DNA from: Cyanidioschyzon merolae
Taxonomy: Eukaryota
NCBI GenBank assembly: GCA_000091205.1
Contig: AP006489.2
Reading direction: 5' to 3' (one strand)
DNA: 64,000 nt
Shown here: piece by piece, positions 6,693-53,142 of the stretch
Layout of the letters: every line of letters begins with the position of its first letter
Position numbering within the stretch: position 1 is the stretch's first letter
Translations under genes and position numbers: made by a program
The notes under the pieces: model-generated
Seen by the model: only the letters and a program-made list of their open reading frames with translations
Databases searched by the model: none
Told to the model about the DNA's origin: nothing

Positions 6693-8303
6693 CGATGACT
6701 TTTGAAGTACATGGAACGTATAGCCATGTTTGATTTTGTTTGTTTTTCTGGCAGGTATGCAACGAAAGGAATGCGTTTCGCAGACTGGGGAAAGGTCGGC
6801 AAGAGGCTCGATGGCGCCACTACTGGCTAGCGAAGAGAGGCCTTCGCATCAGAAGCAGCACAGAGTGCCTCCCTGGGGTCCGAGTGCACGAGCCACCTTT
6901 TGCGTCCGTTCGATATAGACCGCAAATATCAGACCAAGGCTCATGATCGCATCGTAGACTCTTCTGCATGGAGCTTTACGACCACCACCGTAGTGAGCAG
7001 CGGCAGATATCTGCGACCAATACGAAGCATTCGAGCAACACCGCAAAGCGCACTGGCGAGATACCTTGCTGTTAACCGAGAGGAAACGGGAAGACGTGTT
7101 TGCGAGGACGTCAAAGACCGGACGGAATATCAATCTGTATGCACATTGCGCAGCATCTGGACCAGCGTCTACCAAAGAGACTCATTCGCACCCGTTCAGC
7201 CCAGATGAAGACAACGTCTTCGCGATGGTGGTGTTCGTGCATCCCGAATCCAGGTGCATCGAAGCACTCGCCGTACCTGTAGATCAAGAGCACGGAGCCA
7301 GCGACCCAGGAAGAAACCAGATGAAGCTGCTCGATCTCCGGGGATTCTCTCTGGTAGGCAGCTGGGAATGATCGGCACCAGAGGGTATACCAGAAAATGG
7401 AATGCTGTTATCAGCACCAATCGCGACGCTCCGAGCTCTGCATCCAGCAGCGGGCGATGCTTGCGTCCGTTTCATTCAGAGCGTGCCAAAAACGTCCAAA
7501 CAGTTGATGCACGCGATACTCAGCGGGAATTCGGGACACCGCACCGGAGTCGCCGACAGTTTCGGCCGTATGGAGGCAACAAGCGCGCAAGTGTCGGGTT
7601 CTTCACTGATTTCGAACAGAAAATGACGAGAGGTTTGCGTCGTTTCGCGATAGCCTTCGGCGCTGGGCTTGAAGTTGCGCACACGCCCTGAACTCCTGCG
7701 CTCCGTCGACGAAAGCCGGCAGTGCGCACGGGAATCTGCGCTATACGATTCCCATCGGTGACTGAATCCCGGGCGACATCGATGCATCACGAGCGTGGGT
7801 GCTTGCTGCGACACGAATAGAAACAATCGTATGAAACAGCGTCGGATGCACGCCATGGTGTCCAGAAGGCTGAGCGGACGTCAGTTGGCGAGGCAATCGA
7901 AAAGCATTGCCCAGCTCGTGTGTGATGCCACCGGCTATCATGCACGCGAGCTCTCTCTCTCTCTGTGACGACTCGAACGCCTCCATTATTCACTGGGTAT
8001 GACCAGTGCTTCGAGAGCGTCCAGCGGCCTTGTGTCGAGCGAACGTTCCCGAAAATCGTTTCGTAATCAGCCTGGGCATCTTGCTGAAAAGCTGCAGCCT
8101 TGCGTCCAGAAACACAATGCATCAGTGACCAGGAGAACGCGCACTGGATGCTCACCCCGCAGGAACACACCGCTGTGCTTCGGGTGAGCAATCCATCAAG
8201 GCTGCAGCGACGTGCACCCATCCACCGGTAACGGTATTCCTCAACAGTATTTGAGCGATCATGGGGTTCCACGAATCAACTGTAGAGCGTATATCGCACA
8301 GCG
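6693..8303. repeat. Inverted repeat 1, arm A (~1.6 kb). It is a near-identical reverse complement of 12950-14551.
   Basis: Every ORF-track entry in 6730-8505 has a mirror-image twin on the opposite strand in 12674-14520 that differs by 0-1 aa; for example 7066..7371(+) equals 13879..14184(-). I located the boundaries by reverse-complement comparison: outer end ~6693 (..gatgacttttgaagtacatgg), inner end ~8303 (..gtagagcgtatatcgcac). Confidence 0.85.
7951..7964. repeat. (CT)7 microsatellite inside IR1 arm A. The arm B copy (13284-13299) is one dinucleotide longer.
   Basis: Arm A reads gcgag(ct)7gtgacg. Arm B reads cgtcacac(ag)7ctcgc, i.e. 16 nt versus 14 nt. This 2-nt difference explains why the mirrored ORFs of the two arms diverge after ...RVVT(E/Q)RER. 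Confidence 0.8.
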
Positions 8304-12910: not shown

Positions 12911-12947
12911 GCAGCCTGCTGCCGTCGTGGTATCGACGGCAGGCTGC
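12911..12947. other. Imperfect palindrome/hairpin (about 14-17 bp stem, 5-nt loop) directly abutting the inner boundary of IR1 arm B
   Basis: gcagcctgctgccgtcg tggta cgacggcaggctgc: the left arm is the reverse complement of the right arm apart from a 3-nt (cag) bulge. Arm B begins at ~12950. Confidence 0.6.
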
Positions 12948-12949
12948 GG

Positions 12950-14551
12950 TGCGATATACGCACTACAGTTGATTCGTGGAACCCCATGATCGCTCAAATA
13001 CTGTTGAGGAATACCGTTACCGGTGGATGGGTGCACGTCGCTGCAGCCTTGATGGATTGCTCACCCGAAGCACAGCGGTGTGTTCCTGCGGGGTGAGCAT
13101 CCAGTGCGCGTTCTCCTGGTCACTGATGCATTGTGTTTCTGGACGCAAGTCTGCAGCTTTTCAGCAAGATGCCCAGGCTGATTACGAAACGATTTTCGGG
13201 AACGTTCGCTCGACACAAGGCCGCTGGACGCTCTCGAAGCACTGGTCATACCCAGTGAATAATGGAGGCGTTCGAGTCGTCACACAGAGAGAGAGAGAGC
13301 TCGCGTGCATGATAGCCGGTGGCATCACACACGAGCTGGGCAATGCTTTTCGATTGCCTCGCCAACTGACGTCCGCTCAGCCTTCTGGACACCATGGCGT
13401 GCATCCGACGCTGTTTCATACGATTGTTTCTATTCGTGTCGCAGCAAGCACCCACGCTCGTGATGCATCGATGTCGCCCGGGATTCAGTCACCGATGGGA
13501 ATCGTATAGCGCCGATTCCCGTGCGCACTGCCGGCTTTCGTCGACGGAGCGCAGGAGTTCAGGGCGTGTGCGCAACTTCAAGCCCAGCGCCGAAGGCTAT
13601 CGCGAAACGACGCAAACCTCTCGTCATTTTCTGTTCGAAATCAGTGAAGAACCCGACACTTGCGCGCTTGTTGCCTCCATACGGCCGAAACTGTCGGCGA
13701 CTCCGGTGCGGTGTCCCGAATTCCCGCTGAGTATCGCGTGCATCAACTGTTTGGGCGTTTTTGGCACGCTCTGAATGAAACGGACGCAAGCATCGCCCGC
13801 TGCTGGATGCAGAGCTCGGAGCGTCGCGATTGGTGCTGATAACAGCATTCCATTTTCTGGTATACCCTCTGGTGCCGATCATTCCCAGCTGCCTACCAGA
13901 GAGAATCCCCGGAGATCGAGCAGCTTCATCTGGTTTCTTCCTGGGTCGCTGGCTCCGTGCTCTTGATCTACAGGTACGGCGAGTGCTTCGATGCACCTGG
14001 ATTCGGGATGCACGAACACCACCATCGCGAAGACGTTGTCTTCATCTGGGCTGAACGGGTGCGAATGAGTCTCTTTGGTAGACGCTGGTCCAGATGCTGC
14101 GCAATGTGCATACAGATTGATATTCCGTCCGGTCTTTGACGTCCTCGCAAACACGTCTTCCCGTTTCCTCTCGGTTAACAGCAAGGTGTCTCGCCAGTGC
14201 GCTTTGCGGTGTTGCTCGAATGCTTCGTATTGGTCGCAGATATCTGCCGCTGCTCACTACGGTGGTGGTCGTAAAGCTCCATGCAGAAGAGTCTACGATG
14301 CGATCATGAGCCTTGGTCTGATATTTGCGGTCTCTATCGAACGGACGCAAAAGGTGGCTCGTGCACTCGGACCCCAGGGAGGCACTCTGTGCTGCTTCTG
14401 ATGCGAAGGCCTCTCTTCGCTAGCCAGTAGTGGCGCCATCGAGCCTCTTGGCGACCTTTCCCCAGTCTGCGAAACGCATTCCTTTCGTTGCATACCTGCC
14501 AGAAAAACAAACAAAATCAAACATGGCTATACGTTCCATGTACTTCAAAAA
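12950..14551. repeat. Inverted repeat 1, arm B (reverse complement of 6693-8303)
   Basis: Same mirrored-ORF evidence as arm A. Inner boundary ~12950 (gtgcgatatacgcactacag), outer boundary ~14551 (..cttcaaaaagtcatcg|gactg). Confidence 0.85.
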
Positions 14552-20242: not shown

Positions 20243-20272
20243 TGCTTTTGGGTACATGTCTGCAGTGCGTGT

Positions 20273-20455
20273 TGGTGAAAGGTAGCAGGCGTTTCACGTG
20301 GTAAGAGGCCTGTGTTCAGAGCTTCTCTGACGTACGCTTTGTTATACATTTGCGGTACGTACTGGTGAAAGGTAGCAGGCGTTTCATGTCGTAAGAGGCC
20401 CGTTTTCAGAGCTTCTCTGACGTACGCTTTGTTATACATTTGCGGAGCGGACCGC
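20273..20455. repeat. 2 x ~91-bp tandem duplication in a divergent intergenic region
   Basis: The unit ggtgaaaggtagcaggcgtttca(c/t)gt(g/c)gtaagaggcc..gttatacatttgcgg occurs at 20273 and again at 20364, with 3-4 mismatches. Confidence 0.75.
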
Positions 20456-22852: not shown

Positions 22853-23119
22853 TCACTGTACGGATGGAGCACCACCTGCCGCTGGCATGGGTTGGCCCTC
22901 CTGCAACAGCTCTCCAATACGCTGTACGGCGCCCATGTACTTGAAAACGCAGCGATCCACACAGACACCCTCACCAGTTTGCAACTCGCCGTCGTGATAC
23001 CGCGTCACGCACTTGCGGAAGCATGAATCCGTCATTTTTTGAAACAGGTCTGCGTAAAAGCTCATTTCCCTCCGAGCCAAGTCCACGGGGTTTACCCCTG
23101 CAGCAAGTGCACTAGCCAT
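22853..23119 (-). CDS. small Tim (Tim9/10/13 family, twin CX3C) mitochondrial intermembrane-space chaperone
   Basis: The 88-aa product MASALAAGVNPVDLARREMSFYADLFQKMTDSCFRKCVTRYHDGELQTGEGVCVDRCVFKYMG... has the C-x3-C ... C-x3-C spacing typical of small Tims. ATG at 23119 (cat on the plus strand). It lies 31 nt beyond the end of element copy A, in frame with the element ORF. Confidence 0.7.
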   Translation of the reverse strand: MASALAAGVNPVDLARREMSFYADLFQKMTDSCFRKCVTRYHDGELQTGEGVCVDRCVFKYMGAVQRIGELLQEGQPMPAAGGAPSVQ

Positions 23120-23149
23120 TGACACAGCCAACAACAAACGCCTTTGAAA

Positions 23150-25068
23150 AGAAAAACGCTGCCGCCAGTGGTGCACAGTAGTGGCGGCGAACGCGCCCCG
23201 GACAAGCAGTCTCCAGCTGACGGGCAGACGCATCCCAGCCTTGCTGGGCAGGCCACCCACCACTGGTTTCAACTTTTTCTCATATAGTTGGACTTTGAGA
23301 GGTTGTCCAACAAAGTTCTCTCTTGTCTGCTGTGGAGGTCTTTTCTCAATCGCCGCGCATCTCCTTATATTGACGGCGGCGTTAAAGTCTCGGTTCACAA
23401 ACCGCATACGTTTCTTGCCGTCGTTGGTTGTACTTACGAATGCGAGTAGCCCTCGCACTTTTGTTCTCCTCTCCATTTGCACCTCCGGCAGCGGTCCGTA
23501 CTTTGCTATGTCTTCAGGACTCCCCTGGCGCTTTTCCATCTCGACCCTTTGAAGTGTACACTCCAGCTCATGGTGTGTATCGGACGTTCGGAACTCATCT
23601 ATCCGTATCGTAACAAAACGCCGTGCATTCTCCTTGTACGTTCTTGTCGTTGGAGCTGGCGGAGTCCCTTTGTGGGTCTTCCAGCGCCCCACTCCGTATG
23701 CTACTACGAGCCTCTGACTTTCAAGCTCTCTCAAGGCACTCAACTCATTGAAAAATTCGCGAACGCCCGCTGCTGACCACAATACGGATTCATACGCAAA
23801 CGAGCCCACCGGGGCTTTGTATACTCTTCCCACAGCGCCTCCCAAGGAGCAACATGAACATCCATGCATTTCAGAAAAGCTTCAAAGTCCGCTGCGCGGC
23901 TCGTCACCTTGCTCATAGCTTCCAGGTGCTTCTTCAATCCAGCATTCTCTATCTCGATTTTCTTCCTTGCATTCATTATACCGGATTCTCGGTAGTATCT
24001 CGCTCTCGAGAACCTCAAACGACGCATGTCGTTCTGACGTAATTTACTGTGCGTACCGTATTCCGCACGCTGGGGTACTGCGATGGTTATGATATTTGTG
24101 TTTCCGGGGTCCGCGCCAACGACAAAGTCGTTATTCTCTACCTCTTGCGTCGCAGGATCCTCCTCTTTGTTTTCCTCATGCTTCGCCGCGCCAACGACAA
24201 GGTCGTTATCCTCTACCTCCTGCGTCGCAGGACCCGCCTTCTCCTTGTCTTCATCCTTCGTGACGGGCGCAGCCGAGGGAGGGACTGGCCGGGCTCTCTT
24301 CAACCGCCGATAGTGTATACACAAGGCTACTCCATCGGTTTCAATCATCAAAGTGAACAATTTTTGCTTGCTCACTCTCAAACGTTTAAAATTGAAGATA
24401 TTCTTCCAGTACGTCTCCCGGTTCTCGCCGGCGAAGTCCTCCCTGCTAACGTTGAACTCCGAACAGATCTCCTTCATGATGCCATGAAGGATTCCGGAGT
24501 CGATAGTCCCAAAATGTGACTTGATATTGGACAATGGGACCACGTTGAAGCGCTTCCCCATTAGGAAATCCTTCCGTCTCTCCCACTCTTCATTTGTCTC
24601 TTCACGCAGCATCACCGCTGCCTTGGCTTCGAGCTCTCGGTCCAGAAACACGAAATAGCACAGAATGAGGCGATCGTATCTTTCCTGATCTTTGCTCAAC
24701 TCTGATACCTTGTCTGTTGGATTCGGTAGCCCCAGTACCGCACGATGCTCTTGTATAACCGTACGGATCGCAGAAGCTTCATTCGTGCTCACTTTTGACG
24801 CCTTCTTGTCGACAAATTCGACCTCATCTTCACGCTTGCGATCTTTCATGATGCCATTGATAATCGTCCATTTTCCATTGCGAGAGATGCGCGGGTAGAG
24901 TGCAACCACGGCGCGTATCATGAAACGTTCGAGGTCCATTGTCAAATGGTTCTTCAGGTCCGTGAGGTACTTCTTCGCCCCGTAGGTGTACATATCCCGG
25001 TCACCCTTGTAGCGAGTACCCTCGAAGCTGTAAAAGGGGTGTTTTTCGTGGAGGGTATGCACTAGCAC
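23150..25068 (-). pseudogene. TnpB/Fanzor-like RuvC nuclease, disrupted copy
   Basis: Same protein as copy B, but the ATG of copy B is AGG here (tgatgg versus tgaggg), leaving no in-frame ATG. A 1-bp deletion in a T-run (gcgaatttttcaatgag versus gcgaattttttcaatgag in copy B, near 23756) splits the reading frame into ORFs 23740..25068 and 22853..23869. Confidence 0.65.
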
Positions 25069-26301
25069 ATTTTCCCTCCGCGTGTTCCCTGCGCCAACCC
25101 TCAGGTGACGAATAAAGGTTGCCGAAAACTCCCTCTGGAATCTCGACTGTTTCCATGTGCGTCACATCGCGATACATCTCCCTCGCCAAATGCATCAGTC
25201 CTGACGACGCCCTGGCAATACGCTTGGAGTACGACTAGGCACGTTTTTTGATGGCGCCTCGCAACTTTTCCCTGTACGAATCCTTGATATGTCCAAGAAG
25301 ACCGGCTTTCACTACCATTTCGTCGTACAGGTGTCTTTCTTGCCGCCTTCGACGTAGGGCCTCCCCTCTTCGGTCCTTCTTATCTTCCTTTTTTTCCGGA
25401 CTCGGCACTGTTTTTTGTTTTTTTTCTCTGGCAGCCGGCGACCCTGGGCCTCCAGGATCGTCGACTTGCTTTTTCATAACTTTCCTTTTTTAGATTTTTT
25501 TGAAAAAGAACGTTCTTTGAACGCTTCTGTTATATACTGCGAAAAAACGCTTGAATACACTTGTTTGAGGTTTGAAACACAATTGAAATCAAAACTATAC
25601 TTGGATATGAAGCTCACGAAAATCTGACTTTTACAGCTGAACGACACGCAACTGATCAAGATCGCGTTTCCCTTCAACGGCGGCGGCATGCGCGTCGTGC
25701 CAGTTGACTACTGCCAGCTCTGCCAGATGCACTCACTGACCGCGATGCGTGCACCGCGCGAGACGCTACACGGATCGATGAAGGACACGTGTCCGACGTC
25801 GCATTAGCACATGCGTGTTCTCACCGACGCACTGCAGCGGAAATCAGGTGTCCTAGATCGGAAACTCACGTAGAGTGATCCCCTGCGCTAGGCTCTGTCG
25901 CTGGTGCCGAAACTACTGCCCATCGCCGTACTACCCTAGCATACAAGGGGATGCTGGGGCCTGGCACAAAACTCAGCGATGACTCCAGCACACGCGTAGC
26001 CATCGTAGCATCTTGCGCTTTTGTGGGTAAGGCATGCATCAACCTAGTCATTAGGAGTTTCGATAGTTGTATTTATCGTACACAAACTAGGTGTAGTCGT
26101 GTACCCGAGTACGAATAATATACGTTTATTCCCGATTCTTGTTATGCATGCCGCACGGACGCTGGAATGAGGAACAGATTTGAATTCTGCTTTTATCCGG
26201 CGTCATCGGCGGGCACTGATGACAGTTCAGTATATTGCCATGCTGCCGTCGTTGTCTAACTTATGGTGTCTGCTTCGTTCGAAGGATCCGGTGATCTTGG
26301 T
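23150..26301 (-). mobile_element. TnpB/Fanzor-like nuclease element, copy A (inverted relative to copy B; decayed)
   Basis: The whole region is mirrored at 36619-39787 on the opposite strand; protein-level differences are ~10/650. Outer (3') boundary: identity with copy B ends after ..cagcgtttttcttt at 23150. Inner (5') boundary: high identity ends ~26301 (gcgatgcctc..), then ~70% similarity continues for ~140 bp more. A 1.2-kb AT-richer leader sits upstream of the ORF. Confidence 0.7.
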
Positions 26302-26614
26302 AGAGGCATCGCACACATGTAGCGTGCATATGTAGCACCGCGTTCGACCGACGCATTTCGCCCGGAACGATCGAGGCACCAGCAGCACAAGGCGCTGCAC
26401 CGACCTGAAGGACGGGCGGAGAGGCCCGGCAAGAGTAAATATTGTATAAAGTAGCATATTTAGGAATCTATATGATCCATTTTGCATACGCTGCACGAAA
26501 CGCTTGTCGCACTTGCGAACGCTTTGCAAGCGCTATCCGACAGCGCGTTTCAAGGGCGAACGCGTGCGTCTCGACGTAAAACCCACTGTGTGGAGGCGCT
26601 AGGAGCGCTCTAGA

Positions 26615-30689: not shown

Positions 30690-33600
30690 TGTACAACAAC
30701 CTCGCAGGCACAAGAGTTACCAGCGAAAACAATGTAAACGCGTCACACTTGACGAGGCCCCAAGTAGCACGGCCTCCTCCGCAGACTCCGGAAGGCTAAA
30801 GCGCCTGCGCACAGCGCTGAAACACGAGCCGCGCACGCATCGCAGCGGCACGCATTGCACGCCTGCTGTCCTCGGCACGCATCGCAGCGGCCTGCGTGTA
30901 TCCTGGATTCTACGACATGCGTCTGCGCGATGCGTCATAGCACCCCAGAATAGGCTGAGACTGGCACGAATGGCGACGGATAGCGCATCCTATCGTGGTA
31001 AAGGCACGGCAACGAGAGGTACAGAGACTTGAAAGGCGAATGATCTGGGCGTTGGGCAGTATATTTTTTGCGCGTGCATGCTTGTGTGCGGCTTGACATG
31101 TACGCGTTGCGGGGGTCTTGGGCGCGCTCCGGCCTGCACTGGCTATCAGGTCCGAGCGCGGCAAATGGGAAACTGCCGGGGGAATATGCGTGGTGGTGCG
31201 GAACGATGGGCACGCTCTCGGGTGCTGATAACCATGGCGTCTGCGGGGATCACTGCTTTATGTCAGCGGTTCTGTGCGCCGAAACACCCGAGTGTTCCCG
31301 GTCTGCAGTGCGCATTCGTTCATGCGATGATACATGAGAATGTCGCATAATGCAGCACGATTGACGTTAATCATTTGAATAGCCAAAGCGTCCCGAGTCT
31401 ATGTATATGACGCTCCAGCGTTCGTGGTGCGTTCAGTCATGCGGTACCGTTCCAGTACCTTGCACCTGGAGCGAATCCAACGCCCTCTCTTCAAGCCGTT
31501 GAAGTGCTCGTTGGAAGTTGTTAGCGTTCTAGCAAAATACCCACACTGATGACGAAATCTGTCGAAATCACACCCTTGAAAACTTGCTCGATACGGATCC
31601 GTTGTGCGCTATGGAATCACGGAACATTTTCGAATGTTCATCGAGATGAAGTTTCGGTGCAGATAGTGCTTTCGTGTATTGTTTCTGGTAGAATTATACC
31701 ATAGCCAGCCGCTCATTTTCGATAGCCTCGCCACCTGACGTTCGGGTATCATACCACGCATTATCTCGTGCAACTGGCTCTGTTTTAGAAGCTTATACTC
31801 TACCAGTTTCAGCGTGCACCCGCGCTCATGGTGCGTGCATGACATGCCGAACAAATCTGTGGGGATCATAGAGCATCGATCATTGCAGTCAATGTATGCT
31901 TTCGCGGAACGAGCAGGCATGCAGGCCTTGCGCGCTACCGCAGGTCCAGCGTCGAGAGCTCCCTTCACCGAACGACGCGACATGTCGGTCGTTTCCTGTT
32001 CCACCTCGTTGAACAAGATGACGAACGCACTGTTCTTGACTTTGTGCAATCGTTACTGTTGGTGGCCAGAGCGTGGTCTCATGTACACGCCCAAGAAATC
32101 GCCCAATCATCCATCAAGACGCTCGTGTATTCTCTGAATCGTAGAATCACATCGATCAGTCGAACGAGTTATGGTACGCGATGGGGAACGTACAACGCCA
32201 ACGGGGTGTGCTTCATAAATTGCTCGATTTTCGGAACGTATTCCTTGTTGAATTGTTTCAGAGGAACGGGATGTACGACGATTTCAGAATGGTACTTCAG
32301 CTCCGACACTTTTTCTATATCTCCTGGTCATTTTGTGGAAGAATCACTGTTATCTTCGTACGGCGCTTGCTTTGACTCGTTCTCTTCCTGGCCGGGTAAC
32401 ATGGGTGCATGCGCTTTACTACATATCCGTATTATTCCGTGGTATTTTTGCACAACGGGTGATCCCTCGCACTGAATCTCGCCTATTGCATAGGTATATC
32501 TACAATGGTTTAAATACGCTCTCGTCATCGTAACCGTCGCGAGTACGTCCACAGATCGGAACGCGGCGTGCCGCTTTCCTCATGCACGAGAAAAGATGTA
32601 GCGGAGTAGTTCAGAATAGGTAAAGATACAGAAAAATTCGTGTAGGGGCTGAAGTATGGAGATTAATACAATTCTCGGTTGATCCGCGAGCGTGAGAATT
32701 GCGTTTGACAACAGGGAGAACGGCTTTCTCTCGATTTATCTGGGGAGAAACAGCTAAGACGAAGAGCAGCTTAACGCCAGTCTCAGCCGCGCACTCCTTG
32801 ATCGCTTTTTAGTGATGAAAAGGGACGTTCTCTAAGAGCAAGAGACAGGAATATGCGATGGGGTAGCCTCGATGCGTGCTTCAACGAAGGATGAGATGCC
32901 GCATGATCCACTTCTTTGGGGAGTTGTAGGCGGGCACACGACAGTATCGACATTATGACTGAAGTTGTCGTCATTCTCGCTTGCTTCTTTTTAACGAGCA
33001 GAATTTTGACCCTTTTTGAGTACCCATGTAGAGTTCAATCAAATATCCCGAAAAAGATCTCATCGAGTGAGAAGAATGCGCGCCGATCCCGCAAGAAGTG
33101 TTGGCGTTGCAGCACGAAGACGTTCGTGTGTTCTTCCACCCGCAACGGTCTCTCACAGCAGCGAACTATCTTTTTTCGTCCGTTCATGTCTCTTCATCAT
33201 TATGCATATCGACGGTATGGAATCTTTAATTATGTATCTTAATTGACAGTATTTTCTAGAGAACGCTTTTCGTGGAATGCTTTGACGAAGTCACCGTCCT
33301 GAAGATAGGAACTAAGAAGTTCTGCCTCGGGTGCACGACGTTCAGATTAAGGATGCTGAGAAGGATTGCTCACCTACCTGCCTAATCAAGAATGACCGAC
33401 ATGGAAAAGCAGCGCCGATTTTCGGAAGCTAGCTGTGACAGCGTGCGTCTTTCGGCGAAACTTTTCCAGTCTATAGGATACGTCACTTTTACTGAATGTT
33501 TGCAAGAAATAGCAAACAAAAACAAATAGGATATGCAGGTATAGGTGCTCCAGAATACACTGCTCGGAATATAACAGTGGCATCCCGAACGGATCCATGC

Positions 33601-34638: not shown

Positions 34639-34896
34639 CTACACTTTGGCATCTGCACGCGATGATGAGGTTTGCGATTTTACCTGCTCAAGCTGCGCCC
34701 GCAAGCGCTCCAGTTCCGTCTCCACTCGCAGAGCGCGCTGGTCCACGTTGTGAATCTCCTCCTCCATACCACTAAAAGTCTCGCGGACGAGCGCGTTTGC
34801 CTTCAAAATATCATAGTGCAGGCGCAGAAACCCAAGTCCACCAGTAACCGTTGCACCCAAACAGAAAGCTGCGAGCCTGGAACGAAAGCTTGCCAT
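34639..34896 (-). CDS. small hypothetical protein (N-terminal TM-like segment + coiled coil)
   Basis: The ATG-initiated part of ORF 34639..35151 gives MASFRSRLAAFCLGATVTGGLGFL...ETELERLRAQLEQVKSQ. It sits in a low-GC gene desert and has no recognised domain, so this is a weak call. Confidence 0.25.
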   Translation of the reverse strand: MASFRSRLAAFCLGATVTGGLGFLRLHYDILKANALVRETFSGMEEEIHNVDQRALRVETELERLRAQLEQVKSQTSSSRADAKV

Positions 34897-36618
34897 GGTA
34901 GTGTCAGTAGACAACTGCGTTGCCAGTGCTGCCGCGTTGCTGGCGACACGCCCGCCATTGCGTTGCGCGCTATGCCCACATGGCGTTAAGATCGGTGTGC
35001 TCTCGTCTTTCCACTCAAGTCTGTGACACTCCTGCTGCGCTTTAGAGCAGGGGATCGAAATCATGAAGCAATGTACAGTATAGAGCGTAGACGAATTGCG
35101 TGTAGGGTATATTTTTTTAATGAACAGTTCAAGAAAGACCGCATTCCTCATTCGGTTGAGTCATAACCCAGTACTCAGATGAATGACGAGCACAGAAAGA
35201 GGATATGCGCTCCGCGCCAAAAATCGATACGCTCAAAGACTGGGTGCGGTCAATGGCAGAAAACGAGTCGTCGATCACCTTGCAGAATGCAAACGTGTCG
35301 ATAGTAGCCGCGACGGTAGTCTCTGTTTCTCAAGTGCGTGTTCGTGTGCTCTGAAAGACTGGGATACAGTCTCAAAAAAGGAGTCCTAGTTCACGCACGA
35401 ACAGCTTTGACCGAAATCGCAACTACAACAAAGTTCCTCGAGAGTTGCCATCGATATGAAGCACAGCAACGTCGATTTCTTTTTCCAGACGATGAGAGTT
35501 TCTTCAGATGAAACGGTTGGAATGTATTTGGGTATTCGCGGAGAAGGAGCCATTTTAATATACGATGGAGCTCGAAGAGAAGGCTAGTACAACGGCACCA
35601 ACCACTTTGTCGGATCATAGCAGACTTTTCCCTTGACGTCTAATAATACCCTTCTATGGGACAACGTGGTATTTCACCATTCCTCTTCCGTTTGAGCATT
35701 TGCAGATTATATCGGGCAAGAGCTGCTTTTCATTCTTCCGTAAACTCCGCGGTTCAACCCCAACGAATGAAAGTTTCATATCGTGAAACGAAAGGATCGC
35801 TCCGCTGGGCGCATTGCTGGAGCGCTCAGCAAACTATGCCACACACAGAGACATATTTTTGTCTTTCTTCCACAAGTCTTTCACCATCCAAGCAGGTCCT
35901 CACCTTAAGACATAAACAAGTGCATTCATTCTCGAGAAATAAAAAAACCAAGGCATGAGCTCGTGTGCAGTCTTCAGAAGATCGAGACGAAGAGCAGGCA
36001 ACGGAGTTCTTCGATGATAGACAAGCACGGAGAGGCGACAGAGCACCAAATGGCATAGAGGGCGCGACTTCAAGGAATACTCGCTTTGGTGAGTCTAAGC
36101 AGTGGCAATAACCCCTTGAGTTCGAGAACCGAGAATTTAATGCAGCTATTTATATCAGGAAATGTGCGGTGCCTAGGACGAGACCCGCGGAGCTGATACG
36201 AGACAAGTTTGTGGAGCAGTCTCTCGAGGTCGAATCGTAAAAGGAGAAACTGAAGCCGATCGCAGGATCGGTCGAAAAAGGCTGGGAGTCGTCTGTACTT
36301 AGGTATTAACTTACCCTACGTAGTTGCGCGACCTGTTTGTTTCACTGGCATGTATGCTCTAGCGATAGCCCGTACGTTCCGCAGCAATATTACTGGGAGT
36401 GAAAAAACAGCAGGCAGTCATCGAACGTTCGGGAGCGTATGAATGGCAGGGTACGGTTAAGCTCAAGGTTCGGCGCTTGCACAACTCCATAACGGCGAGG
36501 GTCGTGCCAGTGATCCGACAGGGTACACCAGCTGGCAGTATGTGATTTTGTCATGCGCCCCGATCCTGCCAGGCGAAATGCAAGGGTCAGCCGTCAAGGT
36601 ACATTTAGACGCAGCATG

Positions 36619-39600
36619 CGCGATGCCTCTACCAAGATCACCGGATCCGTCGAACGAAGCAGACACCATAAGTTAGACAACGACGGCAGCATGGCAATAT
36701 ACTGAACTGTCATCAGTGCCCGCCGATGACGCCGGATAAAAGCAGAATTCAAATCTGTTCCTCATTCCAGCGTCCGTGCGGCATGCATAACAAGAATCGG
36801 GAATAAACGTATATTATTCGTACTCGGGTACACGACTACACCTACTTTGTGTACGATAAATACAACTATCGAAACTCCTAATGACTAGGTTGATGCATGC
36901 CTTACCCACAAAAGCGCAAGATGCTACGATGGCTACGCGTGTGCTGGAGTCATCGCTGAGTTTTGTGCCAGGCCCCAGCATCCCCTTGTATGCTAGGGTA
37001 GTACGGCGATGGGCAGTAGTTTCGGCACCAGCGACAGAGCCGAGCGCAGGAGATCACTCTACGTGAGTTTCCGATCTAGGACACCTGATTTCCGATGCAG
37101 TGCGTCGGTGAGAACACGCATGTGCTAATGCGACGTCGGACACGTGTCCTTCATCGATCCGTGTAGCGTCTCGCGCGGTGCACGCATCGCGGTCAGTGAG
37201 TGCACCTGGCAGAGCTGGCAGTAGTCAACTGGCACGACGCGCACGCCGCCGCCGTTGAAGGGAAACGCGATCTTGATCAGTTGCGTGTCGTTCAGCTGTA
37301 AAAGTCAGATTTTCGTGAGCTTCATATCCAAGTATAGTTTTGATTTCAATTGTGTTTCAAACCTCAAACAAGTGTATTCAAGCGTTTTTTCGCAGTATAT
37401 AACAGAAGCGTTCAAAGAACGTTCTTTTTCAAAAAAAGTCTAAAAAAGGAAAGTTATGAAAAAGCAAGTCGACGATCCTGGAGGCCCAGGGTCGCCGGCT
37501 GCCAGAGAAAAAAAACAAAAAACAGTGCCGAGTCCGGAAAAAAAGGAAGATAAGAAGGACCGAAGAGGGGAGGCCCTACGTCGAAGGCGGCAAGAAAGAC
37601 ACCTGTACGACGAAATGGTAGTGAAAGCCGGTCTTCTTGGACATATCAAGGATTCGTACAGGGAAAAGTTGCGAGGCGCCATCAAAAAACGTGCCTAGTC
37701 GTACTCCAAGCGTATTGCCAGGGCGTCGTCAGGACTGATGCATTTGGCGAGGGAGATGTATCGCGATGTGACGCACATGGAAACAGTCGAGATTCCAGAG
37801 GGAGTTTTCGGCAACCTTTATTCGACACCTGATGGTTGGCGCAGGGAACACGCGGAGGGAAAATGTGCTAGTGCATGCCCTCCACGAAAAACACCCCTTT
37901 TACAGCTTCGAGGGTACTCGCTACAAGGGTGACCGGGATATGTACACCTACGGGGCGAAGAAGTACCTCACGAACCTGAAGAACCATCTGACAATGGACC
38001 TCGAACGTTTCATGATACGCGCCGTGGTTGCACTCTACCCGCGCATCTCTCGCAATGGAAAATGGACGATTATCAATGGCATCATGAAAGATCGCAAGCG
38101 TGAAGATGAGGTCGAATTTGTCGACAAGAAGGCGTCAAAAGTGAGCACGAATGAAGCTTCTGCGATCCGTACGGTTATACAAGAGCATCGTGCGGTACTG
38201 GGGCTACCGAATCCAACAGACAAGGTATCAGAGTTGAGCAAAGATCAGGAAAGATACGATCGCCTCATTCTGTGCTATTTCGTGTTTCTGGACCGAGAGC
38301 TCGAAGGCAAGGCAGCGGTGATGCTGCGTGAAGAGACAAATGAAGAGTGGGAGAGACGGAAGGATTTCCTAATGGGGAAGCGCTTCAACGTAGTCCCATT
38401 GTCCAATATCAAGTCACATTTTGGGACTATCGACTCCGGAATCCTTCATGGCATCATGAAGGAGATCTGTTCGGAGTTCAACGTTAGCAGGGAGGACTTC
38501 GCCGGCGAGAACCGGGAGACGTACTGGAAGAATATCTTCAATTTTAAACGTCTGAGAGTGAGCAAGCAAAACTTGTTCACTTTGATGATTGAAACCGATG
38601 GAGTAGCCTTGTGTATACACTATCGGCGGTTGAAGAGAGCCCGGCCAGTCCCTCCCTCGGCTGCGCCCGTCACGAAGGATGAAGACAAGGAGAAGGCGGG
38701 TCCTGCGACGCAGGAGGTAGAGGATAACGACCTTGTCGTTGGCGCAGCGAAGCATGAGGAAAACAAAGAGGAGGATCCTGCGACGCAAGAGGTAGAGAAT
38801 AACGACTTTGTCGTTGGCGCGGACCCCGGAAACACAAATATCATAACCATCGCAGTACCCCAGCGTGCGGAATACGGTACGCACAGTAAATTACGTCAGA
38901 ACGACATGCGTCGTTTGAGGTTCTCGAGAGCGAGATACTACCGAGAATCCGGTATAATGAATGCAAGGAAGAAAATCGAGATAGAGAATGCTGGATTGAA
39001 GAAGCACCTGGAAGCTATGAGCAAGGTGACGAGCCGCGCAGCGGACTTTGAAGCTTTTCTGAAATGCATGGATGTTCATGTTGCTCCTTGGGAGGCGCTG
39101 TGGGAAGAGTATACAAAGCCCCGGTGGGCTCGTTTGCGTATGAATCCGTATTGTGGTAAGCAGCGGGCGTTCGCGAATTTTTTCAATGAGTTGAGTGCCT
39201 TGAAGGAGCATGAAAGTCAGAGGCTCGTAGTAGCATACGGAGCGGGGCGCTGGAAGACCCACAAAGGGACTCCGCCAGCTCCAACGACAAGAACGTACAA
39301 GGAGAATGCACGGCGTTTTGTTACGATACGGATAGATGAGTTCCGAACGTCCGATACACACCGTGAGCTGGAGTGTACACTTCAAAGGGTCGAGATGGAA
39401 AAGCGCCAGGGGAGTCCTGAAGACATAGCAAAGTACGGACCGCTGCCGGAGGTGCAAATGGAGAGGAGAACAAAAGTGCGAGGGCTACTCGCATTCGTAA
39501 GTACAACCAACGACGGCAAGAAACGTATGCGGTTTGTGAACCAAGACTTTAACGCCGCCGTCAATATACGGAGATGCGCGGCGATTGAGAAAAGACCTCC

Positions 39601-39787
39601 ACAGCAGACAAGAGAGAACTTTGTTGGACAACCTCTCAAAGTCCAACTATATGAGAAAAAGTTGAAACCAGTGGTGGGTGGCCTGCCCAGCAAGGCTGGG
39701 ATGCGTCTGCCCGTCAGCTGGAGACTGCTTGTCCGGGGCGCGTTCGCCGCCACTACTGTGCACCACTGGCGGCAGCGTTTTTCTTTA
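36619..39787 (+). mobile_element. TnpB/Fanzor-like nuclease element, copy B (intact ORF)
   Basis: Reverse-complement twin of 23150-26301. 5' boundary ~36619, with diverged homology back to ~36470. 3' boundary 39787, immediately after ..caccactggcggcagcgtttttcttt. A GC-rich imperfect hairpin (gccgcca N14 tggcggc, 39746-39773) lies 15-40 nt inside the 3' end. The two copies share no terminal inverted repeat. Confidence 0.7.
37832..39787 (+). CDS. TnpB/Fanzor-like RNA-guided-nuclease-family protein (RuvC-I/II/III, degenerate zinc finger), ~651 aa to the element end. There is no stop codon; the ORF continues in frame into the aminopeptidase gene downstream.
   Basis: RuvC-I: ..[20 protein letters not shown] (D331). 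TS/zinc-finger region: [23 protein letters not shown]. RuvC-III: [19 protein letters not shown] (D572), the classic DxNAAxNI motif. The order and spacing match TnpB/Cas12/Fanzor. The ATG at 37832 is preceded by an in-frame TGA. The ORF track lists the read-through as 37832..41404. Confidence 0.65.
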
Positions 39788-39829
39788 GACAGGCTTTTGT
39801 TTTCGCTGCCGTCGTCCTCCAGAAGCAAA

Positions 39830-41404
39830 ATGAACGCTGAACCAGGTGTTCCCAACTCGGACCACAACCGCACACGACAAATGCCTGGTGGGAACACAAC
39901 CGAGCAGGACGCACTCGCCGATCGCTTGCTTCGCTTTCTCGATGCGTCACCGTCTCCGTACCACGCAGTCGAGACCGCAAAACTGCTTCTAGAAACAGCT
40001 GGCTATACTGAGCTTCGGGAGGACTGTTCCTGGTTGGGGCGAGTTCATCCCGGAGGACGCTATTATACGACACGCAACGAGTCAACAATCGTTGCCTTTC
40101 GAGTGGGGCGAGCGTTTCACGTCGACGCGGTGAACGGCGGTGAGCTCCGACTCGTTGGCGCGCACACCGACTCGCCGTGCTTTCGAGTCAAACCACGAAG
40201 TCGCGTGAGCGACGCAAATTATGAAAAAGTTGCAGTCGAGTGCTACGGGGGCGGCCTCTGGTACACCTGGTTCGATCGCGACCTCAAGTGTGCTGGGCGG
40301 GTCATCTGGCGCTGTGCGTCCCCAACGGACCCGGCACAGGGCACCAGCCGATCGACCAGTTGGCAGTGCACACTCGTTCATGTACGGGAACCCATTTTGA
40401 GAATTCCATCATTGGCAATCCACTTAGATCGAGAAGTGAATCAGGGCTTCGCCCCGAACCGACAAACGCATTTGGTGCCGGTTGCCGCCACCGCATTGAA
40501 CAGAACAAAGTTGCCACAGTGTCAAGAGCGCCATGCCACTGCACTTACGGGAGCAGTTATTCACACTCTTCAACAGGACATCATGCCCGTTAAAGAAGAT
40601 CCGATGAGCATCACGCGTGATGCAGGCGGTATCGTTATTCATGACTTTGACCTCTGTTTGGCAGACGCACAGCCAGCGAGCATTGGTGGCGTTCAGCGGG
40701 AGTTCATCTTCGCTTCGCGTCTAGACAACCTGTTTTCCTGTTTCGCGGCACTCGAAGCGCTCCTCTCCCTGGATTCCGAGGCTGGGGTGGAAAGCGGTGC
40801 CGAGTCGGCGGTCTGCATGGTTGCGCTTTTCGACCATGAGGAGTGCGGTAGCGGTAGTGCGCAAGGCGCTGCGTCTCCGCTTGTCAGCGACCTGATTCGA
40901 CGTGTTCTAGCGTGTTTATGGACGGGGAAAACGGATGCAGGCGCTTTCGAGGACGCTGTTCAATACACGATCCGCCGCTCATTCTTGATCAGTCTCGATA
41001 TGGCGCATGCTGTCCATCCAAACTACGCGGAAAAGCATGAGAGTGGCCATCAGCCGCTCTTAGGCCATGGCCCTGTTCTGAAAGTCAACGCAAACCAGCG
41101 GTATGCAACTGACGGGTGGAGCGCTCATCTCCTCCGCGCTGTTGCCGAATGCTGTGATTCACCTATACCGCTGCAGGAGTACGTTGTGCGGAACGATATG
41201 CCTTGCGGCAGCACCATTGGACCCATTGTAGCTGCTGGTACCGGCGTACGAACTGTTGATGTAGGTGCACCAAGTCTTTCAATGCACTCGATTCGGGAAA
41301 TGGCGCATGTACGAGATCTATGGTACACCGTCAAGCTTTTGCAAGCGTTCATGCGATGTTTCGGTGAGGTCCGGGCGTCGCATAATACAGCGTGCGTGAC
41401 GTAG
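39830..41404 (+). CDS. DNPEP: aspartyl aminopeptidase (M18 family)
   Basis: ..LLRFLDASPSPYHAVETAKLLLETAGYTELREDCSWL..TRNESTIVAF..LRLVGAHTDSPCFRVKPRS..YGGGLWYTWFDRDL..LRIPSLAIHLDREVN..MAHAVHPNYAEKHE..NDMPCGSTIGPI..LSMHSIREMA aligns along its whole length with human DNPEP. Start taken as the ATG at 39830 (MNAEPG); the ATG at 39881 is an alternative. It begins 43 nt after the element end, in the same frame as the element ORF. Confidence 0.85.
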   Translation: MNAEPGVPNSDHNRTRQMPGGNTTEQDALADRLLRFLDASPSPYHAVETAKLLLETAGYTELREDCSWLGRVHPGGRYYTTRNESTIVAFRVGRAFHVDAVNGGELRLVGAHTDSPCFRVKPRSRVSDANYEKVAVECYGGGLWYTWFDRDLKCAGRVIWRCASPTDPAQGTSRSTSWQCTLVHVREPILRIPSLAIHLDREVNQGFAPNRQTHLVPVAATALNRTKLPQCQERHATALTGAVIHTLQQDIMPVKEDPMSITRDAGGIVIHDFDLCLADAQPASIGGVQREFIFASRLDNLFSCFAALEALLSLDSEAGVESGAESAVCMVALFDHEECGSGSAQGAASPLVSDLIRRVLACLWTGKTDAGAFEDAVQYTIRRSFLISLDMAHAVHPNYAEKHESGHQPLLGHGPVLKVNANQRYATDGWSAHLLRAVAECCDSPIPLQEYVVRNDMPCGSTIGPIVAAGTGVRTVDVGAPSLSMHSIREMAHVRDLWYTVKLLQAFMRCFGEVRASHNTACVT

Positions 41405-51800: not shown

Positions 51801-52385
51801 ACGTACCAGATCGATCGATGAATCGCTGCGCGGGAGGCGTCTGACCTGCAAGATCAATCGAAAAGCAACTTGTTCTGGATATTTATGTATAAATAGGATT
51901 TTACTGGATGATCCTGACGTACCAGATCGATCGATGAATCGCTGCGCGGGAGGCGTCTGACCTGCAAGATCAATAGGCAAGCAACTTGTTCTGGATATTT
52001 ATGTATAAATAGGATTTTACTGGATGATCCTGACGTTACGATCGATCGATGAATCGCTGTGCGGGAGGCGTCTGACCTGCAAGATCAATAGGAAAGCAAC
52101 TTGTTCTGGATATTTATGTATAAATAGGATTTTACTGGATGATCCTGACGTTACGATCGATCGATGAATCGCTGTGCGGGAGGCGTCTGACCTGCAAGAT
52201 CAATCGAAAAGCAACTTGTTCTGGATATTTATGTATAAATAGGATTTTACTGGATGATCCTGACGTTACGATCGATCGATGAATCGCTGTGCGGGAGGCG
52301 TCTGACCTGCAAGATCAATAGGCAAGCAACTTGTTCTGGATATTTATGTATAAATAGGATTTTACTGGATGATCCTGACGTTACG
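51801..52385. repeat. Minisatellite: 5 tandem copies of a ~116-bp unit, each containing TATAAATAGG
   Basis: The unit acgt(a/t)ac(c)agatcgatcgatgaatcgctg(c/t)gcgggaggcgtctgacctgcaagatcaat(c/a)g(a/g)aaagcaacttgttctggatatttatgtataaataggattttactggatgatcctg starts at 51801, 51917, 52033, 52148 and 52263. The array ends with a truncated sixth start at ~52378. Confidence 0.9.
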
Positions 52386-53142
52386 GAAGCATCCGAGAAC
52401 GCACGTCATTTTGCGGCTGTATATCCGGACGTGTTTCTTCAAACATCCTGCGAGGGTGCGAGCGTTGCTAGTCGTCATCGTGAAACCCACGTCAGTCCCG
52501 ATGCAGATGCTCCATCCGTTCAAGGTTTCCTCTTCAAAGTTATCCAGAGGAAAAGAGACTTTATCCAGCGAGTCCAGATCTGGATATCCACTCGATACCG
52601 CTGGACGCGCCGCCGTTCTTGTCGCGTGCAGGCAGAACGGCTCTGCGATACCCATTCATAAACTTGCTTCAAGAGCTGGATGCCGAAGCGTGCGCGTGAA
52701 CAAGGTCGCACCGTATGCAACGCTGGGGAAACTGCGACTTGAGTTCGCACCAATTGTTCCAATTGTCCTTCGCATGCGCAATTCGTTGTGCCGGACTCCT
52801 TTTTACACAAGTGCATGACGACGGGCGTTACCGTGCCTCAGCTTGTTTCCCTATCCAGCCAGTCTAGTTCAGCCGCGCTCTCCACTTGGTTCAACCTGGA
52901 AACTGCATTGCAATGGCAACGTAAAGCTTCGAAGCACTAACCAACACCCTGCATACTCAAGGCATGTATCGGCGAACGCACCGAACCTGCTTCTTAGCAA
53001 GCAACCTAGCCGCTCAAAGTCGACGGCAAGCGGTGCGCTGGCTGCACACGGGCCAGTCGGCGCTAGACTGGTGTCCGCGGACGCGCTCGTTTATCGCAAA
53101 CGAGAGTCGCGCTGACGCTTGCTGGCTTCGACCTGGTTCTCG

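Follow-up and report, generated by a model that had tools for sequence, protein, structure and literature searches.

Why does the reading frame of a transposon-borne nuclease run without a stop codon into a host gene, and why does it do so at two places close to each other? This question is raised by a 64-kb stretch of nuclear DNA from chromosome 7 of Cyanidioschyzon merolae 10D, which was analysed over its whole length and is referred to as the window. It contains two copies of an element coding for a Fanzor1 nuclease, namely copy B (36535..39797, plus strand; ~3.26 kb) and, inverted relative to it, copy A (23137..26399, minus strand). An earlier note on this DNA had described an open nuclease frame entering the downstream host gene at both sites, and this description holds. 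In copy B, the first 666 codons of a run-on open reading frame (ORF) of 1190 aa (37832..41404, plus strand) represent a truncated Fanzor1 frame (37832..39829, plus strand), which is followed by the coding sequence (CDS) of an aspartyl aminopeptidase (39830..41404, plus strand; BAM79567), and a second run-on ORF of 338 aa in the ORF listing of the window (22853..23869, minus strand) leads from copy A into the CDS of Tim10 (22853..23119, minus strand; BAM79563). Both host proteins match the respective C. merolae 10D entries exactly and contain the domains Peptidase_M18 (E=4e-137) and zf-Tim10_DDP (E=6e-18), respectively, and their ATGs at 39830 and 23119 share orientation and frame with the nuclease ORF.

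The explanation we favour, with a probability of roughly 0.78, is that the fusion arose by decay plus chance in old, inactivated copies of the CMe-1A type, and the feature flagged at this locus would then be an ordinary one, i.e., a stop codon lost in dead copies of a family already described in C. merolae. According to this proposal, the ORF of the family would end at a TAG or TAA codon ~60 nt before the 3' terminus, which became CGG in the lineage of the window, and gene conversion between the inverted copies ~10 kb apart would have spread the same loss to both. Without the stop, the frame would stay open through the stop-poor 3' end and, because each element ends ~17-32 nt before a co-oriented ATG, it would run into the host CDS, the in-frame junction at both sites being due to chance and the host proteins starting at their own ATGs. 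Nothing points to a fusion protein being made or selected, and run-on translation probably does not occur, as judged from the sequences. The run-on ORF should be annotated neither as a fusion gene nor as a special layout of a TnpB element.

Consensus Stop Codon and Its Loss

The family was sampled from metagenome contigs, in which 276 related stretches were recorded; 80 related loci were fetched from hot-spring metagenome contigs, and 64 non-identical 3' tails were aligned, which collapse to 43 distinct insertion sites. The Fanzor1 nuclease is carried by a repeated mobile element, with these 43 distinct sites among the analysed stretches and further relics within the window itself. A single column of the tail alignment, equivalent to 39734..39736 (plus strand) of the window, contains TAG in 32 and TAA in 9 of the 64 sequences, the others reading CAG, GAG, CAA, TAC, TCG or TGG, and the lineage of the window CGG. 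Counted by insertion site, a stop codon is present there at 27/43 sites and in some alleles only at 2/43, and a sense codon occupies the column at 14/43. Third codon positions in the body of the ORF are less conserved (~0.81) than first and second positions (0.92-0.95), and this excess of variation persists in weaker form to ~39721 and is gone in 39722-39811. Distant homologs (38% identity) end ~15 codons past a conserved F.GQ motif, none of them reaching the terminus of the element. We conclude that the consensus Fanzor ORF ends with ...WRRFV*, ~60 nt before the 3' terminus, and that the CGG at 39734..39736 marks the native stop, which was lost in the lineage of the window.

These counts bear directly on the earlier note, which had taken the ORF without a terminator as the native layout of the element and had itself named additional copies with ORFs ending before the element end as evidence against this idea. 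Such copies are found at 27 of the 43 sites (plus the two with the stop in some alleles), and the proposal is not supported. A stop codon supplied by splicing, which had been offered in the same context, is not needed to explain the run-on frames. Two other candidates for the stop of the family were rejected: the TAA replacing the GQ codon in loci L002 and L003, because this position is CAA in 55/64 sequences and the Q is conserved in distant homologs, and a TAG at 39605, because it occurs in only 12/64 sequences, TTG being the commonest codon there; as a polymorphism, the latter TAG is informative nonetheless.

Relationship Between Copies A and B

The two copies correspond to inverted repeats at 23133-26315 and 36617-39801, which are 98-99% identical and lie ~10.3 kb apart. 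The near-identity extends up to 39786/39787 in copy B and to 23148 in copy A, falling short of the termini of the family at both ends, and the similarity does not stop abruptly there, declining gradually instead (by eye to ~60-70%). Such a gradual loss short of the family termini is expected if an old pair of inverted copies underwent gene conversion, by which copies A and B were most likely homogenised. With the copies homogenised in this way, the loss of the stop would count as one shared event and not as two. The two copies, which the earlier note had treated as separate cases of a missing stop, can therefore not serve as independent witnesses.

Both copies are pseudogenes. If the family protein P0001 is aligned to copy B by tblastn, its residues 1-99 and 95-752 fall in different frames. 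The N-terminal remnant (37456..37698, plus strand), which was delimited from this alignment and a three-frame translation, is K/R-rich, contains a conserved VVK motif and has a nonsense codon at its end; it is followed by a frameshift near 37800, and the ORF listed from 37832 begins at an internal Met. Copy A contains the same nonsense codon and N-terminal frameshift and, in addition, a further frameshift (23752..23755, minus strand), which splits its nuclease ORF.

A CAG codon at 39605..39607 (plus strand) is TAG in the alleles of both insertions from other strains, namely in L064 and L065 for copy B and in L005 for copy A, all of which read PPQ*TR. Contig Ga0080006_1139435 appears to have TAG at the equivalents of both 39605-39607 and 23342-23344, where strain 10D has CAG in both. 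Matching TAG or CAG states in the two copies would fit concerted evolution.

Origin of the Run-On Frames

The in-frame placement at the two junctions does not extend to the family. A co-oriented host ATG is present at a distance of <=130 nt at 18 sites, and the frames of these ATGs relative to the Fanzor frame (0/1/2) are distributed as 5/6/7, which leaves no basis for regarding the in-frame placement as a family property. In addition, the tail of the element is poor in stop codons in every frame, with 0/2/1 stops in 74 codons. Other strains have alleles of the Tim10 site with a TAG at the YE codon (L006), an additional T (+1, L007) or a missing G (-1, L009), but these broken-frame alleles were retrieved via an 88-aa gene call, which selects for such alleles. 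In the cluster of aminopeptidase genes, the gene calls are of 524, 577, 580 and 669 aa, indicating that the upstream stops differ between strains. Given one shared loss of the stop, junctions that are open and in frame at the two sites would be expected with a chance of a few percent, by a rough estimate made before allowing for the feature having been selected post hoc. Taken together, the random frames in the family, the broken alleles elsewhere and the stop-poor tail suggest that the fusion is best read as chance.

It has to be considered whether an active sublineage instead functions with the open 3' end, its Fanzor frame crossing the terminal hairpins and being closed by a stop in the flanking DNA, or whether the TAG is leaky and read as Gln. 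Besides the selective retrieval of the Tim10 alleles, several observations weigh against decay plus chance and in favour of this possibility. The four longest open frames of the sample (739 codons in L023, 654 in copy B of the window, 606 in L013 and 551 in L050) all lack a stop in the consensus column, those of L023, L013 and L050 being closed 23-33 codons further on, either at the terminus or shortly past it. Moreover, the CAA-bearing lineage of L023 and L034 is present at at least two sites, 8 of the 14 sense sites carry Gln codons (CAG or CAA), and a stable hairpin follows immediately after the stop. The loss of the stop may thus not have prevented further spread, and run-on ORFs may be a tolerated state or even the rule in an active, or once-active, sublineage. 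However, TAG or TAA occurs in the majority of the sites, with both types of stop present, the codon periodicity is absent past 39721, and the C-terminal extensions vary among the copies in length as well as in sequence. The CAG codons are explicable by T-to-C transitions alone, and the window copies are pseudogenes in any case. We therefore regard a functional open end as unlikely.

Still less can be said for a functional or regulated fusion, in which the nuclease ORF and the host gene would be translated together, or a splicing event would supply the stop or join the two. The continuous frame at both sites of strain 10D speaks for such a fusion, which is, however, at odds with the random frames in the family, the upstream stops or frameshifts in the alleles of other strains, the broken N-terminal Fanzor region and the gene calls of the aminopeptidase cluster, the fused ones among which vary in length (577, 580 and 669 aa). 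It also conflicts with the conservation of the start codon and N-terminus of Tim10 in Cyanidiococcus, which has no element at this locus. Introns are very few in C. merolae, which further counts against splicing, and we consider this explanation highly improbable. Trans-splicing, which had been considered on the assumption of a kinetoplastid origin of the DNA, was dropped, as the host is C. merolae. An inverted segmental duplication, by which copies A and B would represent a single site copied, would account for an interior identity of 98-99%, compared with ~66-76% protein identity to the other fetched copies of the family, and another near-perfect inverted pair is present in the same window. 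Yet the two copies are flanked by unrelated host genes on either side, outside the near-identical core each copy has retained family termini of its own, which have diverged, both sites are empty in the syntenic region of Cyanidiococcus, and orthologous copies occupy both sites in other strains, all of which makes a duplication improbable. Decay plus chance in homogenised copies thus remains the preferred explanation.

Assignment to Fanzor1

The earlier note had assigned the ORF to a TnpB-type nuclease, which can now be specified as the eukaryotic Fanzor1. The 666-aa upstream protein alone has no match in Pfam-A or the PDB, but it has 69 metagenome relatives, many of which carry PF26935/DUF8286, and a profile built from 17 family members matches the Fanzor1 proteins of Parasitella parasitica (9cf0, E=5e-18) and Guillardia theta (9cer, E=8.6e-5). 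Three acidic residues are invariant in the alignment of the 17 relatives (D331, E503 and D572, in the contexts GADPG, DEFRTS and RD.NAA) and are all present in the ORF of the window, as the RuvC-I aspartate in GADPG (38822..38824, plus strand), the RuvC-II glutamate in IDEFRTS (39338..39340, plus strand), which aligns with DEFRTS of 9cf0, and the RuvC-III aspartate in DFNAAVNI (39545..39547, plus strand). The profile matches together with this invariant D/E/D set carry the assignment. Note that the Cys pairs of a zinc finger between RuvC-II and RuvC-III were looked for in the same alignment and no conserved Cys column was found, the CxxC of 9cf0 being aligned to THRE or THHE. These Cys pairs are a common feature of Fanzor1 and not a strict requirement. 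Just before RuvC-I, the ORF contains an acidic repeat formed by a 75-nt tandem duplication (38673-38822 in copy B, 24111-24260 in copy A); the number of its units differs among family members, with four in P0001 and none in distant homologs.

The 5' limit of copy B is approximate. Homology begins at 36535/36536 in long copies, with a hint of weak similarity further upstream, and most copies start at ~37182-37352, only few at ~36535, which indicates a separable 5' module of ~645 bp (36535..37180, plus strand) missing from many copies. Among the loci L011-L090, the 5' ends are ragged, homology starting from the window equivalents of 36535, 37182, 37250, 37330 or 38655, and the 3' ends are constant. 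Several loci (L017, L047, L062, L063, L076 and L085) contain two or three copies, often inverted.

Structure of the 3' End

The earlier note had set the end of the element at 39787, with the reservation that the true right end could lie further out, and this reservation turns out to be justified. Position 39787 is the end of the near-identity between copies A and B, not of the element: family conservation amounts to 0.75-0.92 per 10-column block up to ~39794, falls to 0.58 at 39795-39804 and reaches background beyond. The right end therefore lies ~10-20 nt beyond 39787, at ~39797-39806, and takes in a terminal hairpin, the 3' limit of copy B being set at the base of this hairpin (39797) or possibly at 39806. 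The weak similarity of the two flanks noticed before (14/22 nt) represents the 3' arm of this family-wide hairpin plus a T/G-rich tract.

The last 250 nt at the 3' end of the element are conserved, with two hairpins after the stop position. Hairpin 1 (39735..39751, plus strand) lies directly 3' of the stop position and is folded in most copies; a G-C/C-G swap between the variants GCGGG..CTCGC and GCGCG..GCCGC was read from the alignment by eye. It is overlapped by the most conserved motif of the untranslated 3' end, CGCCGCCACTACTGT (39745..39759, plus strand; column identity 0.90), and CGCCACTACTGT, which is highly conserved after the stop position, is invariant in an alignment of five copies. 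The terminal hairpin (39776..39795, plus strand) ends with ...CGTT and contains two mismatches in copy B; its counterpart in copy A (23139-23158) is better kept, yet weak. It exists in two family versions, CGTTCGA/TCGAACG and CGTTTTTC/GAAAGGCG, both of which fold. As these are in different registers, folding was evaluated per sequence instead of by column-wise counts of covariation, and the 3' hairpin was recovered at z<-1.5 in 24/36 copies. RNAalifold gave no strong common fold for the last 255 nt (-3.1 kcal/mol), and Rfam and tRNA scans of the window gave no match. The two hairpins and the conserved ACTACTGT motif probably represent the transposon end and perhaps part of a guide-RNA scaffold, as judged from their conservation and position.

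Past the terminus, ~9 bases form a loosely T/G-rich tract, position +2 being G in 28/43 and position +5 in 30/43 sites. A similar tract precedes the ATG of Tim10 in Cyanidiococcus, where the element is absent, so the tract may belong to the target sequence rather than to the element. In copy B, the T/G-rich tract and the host leader extend from the terminus to the ATG of the aminopeptidase (39798..39829, plus strand), and 17 nt separate the terminus of copy A from the ATG of Tim10 (23120..23136, minus strand).

Position Relative to Host Start Codons

The suspicion of the earlier note that the element prefers positions just 5' of start codons gains from the family data, which show a bias beyond a rough null expectation. 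The nearest downstream gene is co-oriented at 27/41 sites and convergent at 14/41 (binomial p=0.06), and the median distance is 93 nt to a co-oriented ATG versus 407 nt to the end of a convergent gene (one-sided Mann-Whitney p=0.0075). The shortest distances from the terminus to the first co-oriented ATG are 7, 11, 14, 15, 18, 32, 38, 38, 39, 54, 57, 64, 68 and 93 nt; for comparison, the median length of spacers lacking an element in these sequences is 280 nt between tandem, 774 nt between divergent and 247 nt between convergent genes. A co-oriented ATG within 68 nt of the terminus is observed in 13/27 cases, against ~6-14% roughly estimated for uniform insertion. This null is a rough one; moreover, the ATG counted as the first may in some cases lie upstream of the real start, and a few termini are poorly aligned. 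Distances to genes on the 5' side are too sparse for a proper control. Ordinary host genes are found downstream, as 8 of 10 ORFs checked have Pfam domains of such genes.

The 21.5-kb syntenic region of Cyanidiococcus yangmingshanensis was searched for Fanzor homology and none was found, which argues that both insertions are specific to the Cyanidioschyzon lineage. The corresponding spacers measure 811 nt between Tim10 and RanGAP and 755 nt before the aminopeptidase gene, and this intergenic DNA is too diverged to be aligned for deriving an exact insertion point from the empty sites. Copy A has left only 17 nt in front of the ATG of Tim10, so that transcription of this gene would have to start in the element or pass through it. 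It is conceivable, if still doubtful, that the family preferentially lands or is preferentially retained with its hairpin-bearing 3' end no more than tens of nucleotides upstream of co-oriented host ATGs, replacing the native upstream region, so that host genes, among them probably essential ones such as Tim10, would depend on this 3' end for their promoter or leader. If this applies, a guide read from the flank of each copy would match a host 5' leader. The proximity to start codons is the only part of the findings that may be new, providing statistical evidence for a placement of these elements immediately next to start codons of the same orientation in the very compact genomes of red algae. 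Since C. merolae is genetically tractable, both the expression of host genes behind a 3-kb insertion and a guide targeting of 5' leaders are directly testable.

Further Repeats and Relics in the Window

Neighbouring ORFs of the window were identified by exact look-ups as CMG032C, RanGAP and CMG045C. Apart from copies A and B, the window contains a second inverted pair (6700-8302 and 12946-14550), which is 99-100% identical over a distance of 4.6 kb and harbors a degenerate Fanzor relic with stops (7356-7811 and 13439-13894; ~25% aa identity to the query protein). The near-identity of so old a relic pair suggests local homogenisation or palindromic duplication. Two more decayed Fanzor fragments lie at 35957-36348 (plus strand) and 31573-32085 (minus strand). 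The former ends ~150-200 nt before the start of copy B, which places two elements head-to-tail upstream of the aminopeptidase gene and may indicate repeated insertion at one site.

Further repeats are a tandem array of about five 115-nt units (51925-52499) in a spacer between two divergent genes and two tandem 90-nt units of 84% identity (20248-20427) in the spacer upstream of CMG032C. The only part of the 30.7-39.9 kb interval conserved with Cyanidiococcus at the DNA level (71%) is 34715-34896, which matches a minus-strand gene call of 85 aa in Cyanidiococcus and probably represents a small conserved gene.

Comparison With Known Systems

The element shares a 3' terminal hairpin, the absence of target-site duplications (TSDs) and terminal inverted repeats (TIRs), orientation-specific insertion and variable 5' ends with the Helitron, IS91 and Replitron (HUH) types, the general features of which have been described (PMC10288648). 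The copies examined contain no Rep or helicase gene, however, and the TC...CTRR end motifs were not seen, so that this is only a resemblance. A comparison with IS200/IS605 elements carrying TnpB and omega RNA, on which the earlier note had modelled the locus, yields as common features a nuclease gene on the 3' side, no reported TIRs or TSDs, a right end that is short, conserved and non-coding and has a hairpin at its very edge, and an arrangement that would allow a guide to be read from the flank. In contrast to these elements, the host of the window family is eukaryotic, the 5' ends are ragged, and the ORF normally ends ~60 nt before the terminus. As to a fixed short target, the flank shows no more than a loose T/G-rich pattern, in which positions +2 and +5 are G in 65-70% of the sites. 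No TnpA-type gene is apparent in the window element, in which the ORFs listed for copy B other than the Fanzor frame are short and mostly antisense, no systematic search for a second transposase-type ORF having been made. The structurally solved Fanzor1 proteins (9cf0 and 9cer) show the same split RuvC domain with D/E/D in the same order, and the DEFRTS and RD.NAA motifs align. They differ in the zinc finger, the CPKC...C of 9cf0 being replaced by THxE... in the window family, and in that the window copies are pseudogenes.

As for the family itself, CMe-1A is the single Fanzor1 family listed for C. merolae, with ~150 copies of ~3 kb, ~80% identical to the consensus, and without TIRs; TSDs and class were left undetermined, and the 5' 635 bp are common to TE-N2_CMe, according to the part of the account available here (Bao & Jurka 2013, PMC3627910). 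The window element matches this family in host genome, length, protein type and 5' module, as judged by the published description and not by the Repbase consensus, and nothing speaks against the two being identical. Both occur in the same genome as diverged copies, no TIRs were seen and some long ORFs are kept, and with ~3.2 kb, a single Fanzor1-type ORF and a 5' module of ~645 bp, which is absent from many copies and similar in size to the 635-bp part shared by CMe-1A and TE-N2_CMe, the agreement extends to the general architecture. In that part of the account, the position of a consensus stop, terminal hairpins and the placement against host start codons are not described. For a Fanzor1 family with ends reported as undetermined, the 3' end is now defined, comprising the consensus stop, a pair of hairpins and CGTT at the terminus.

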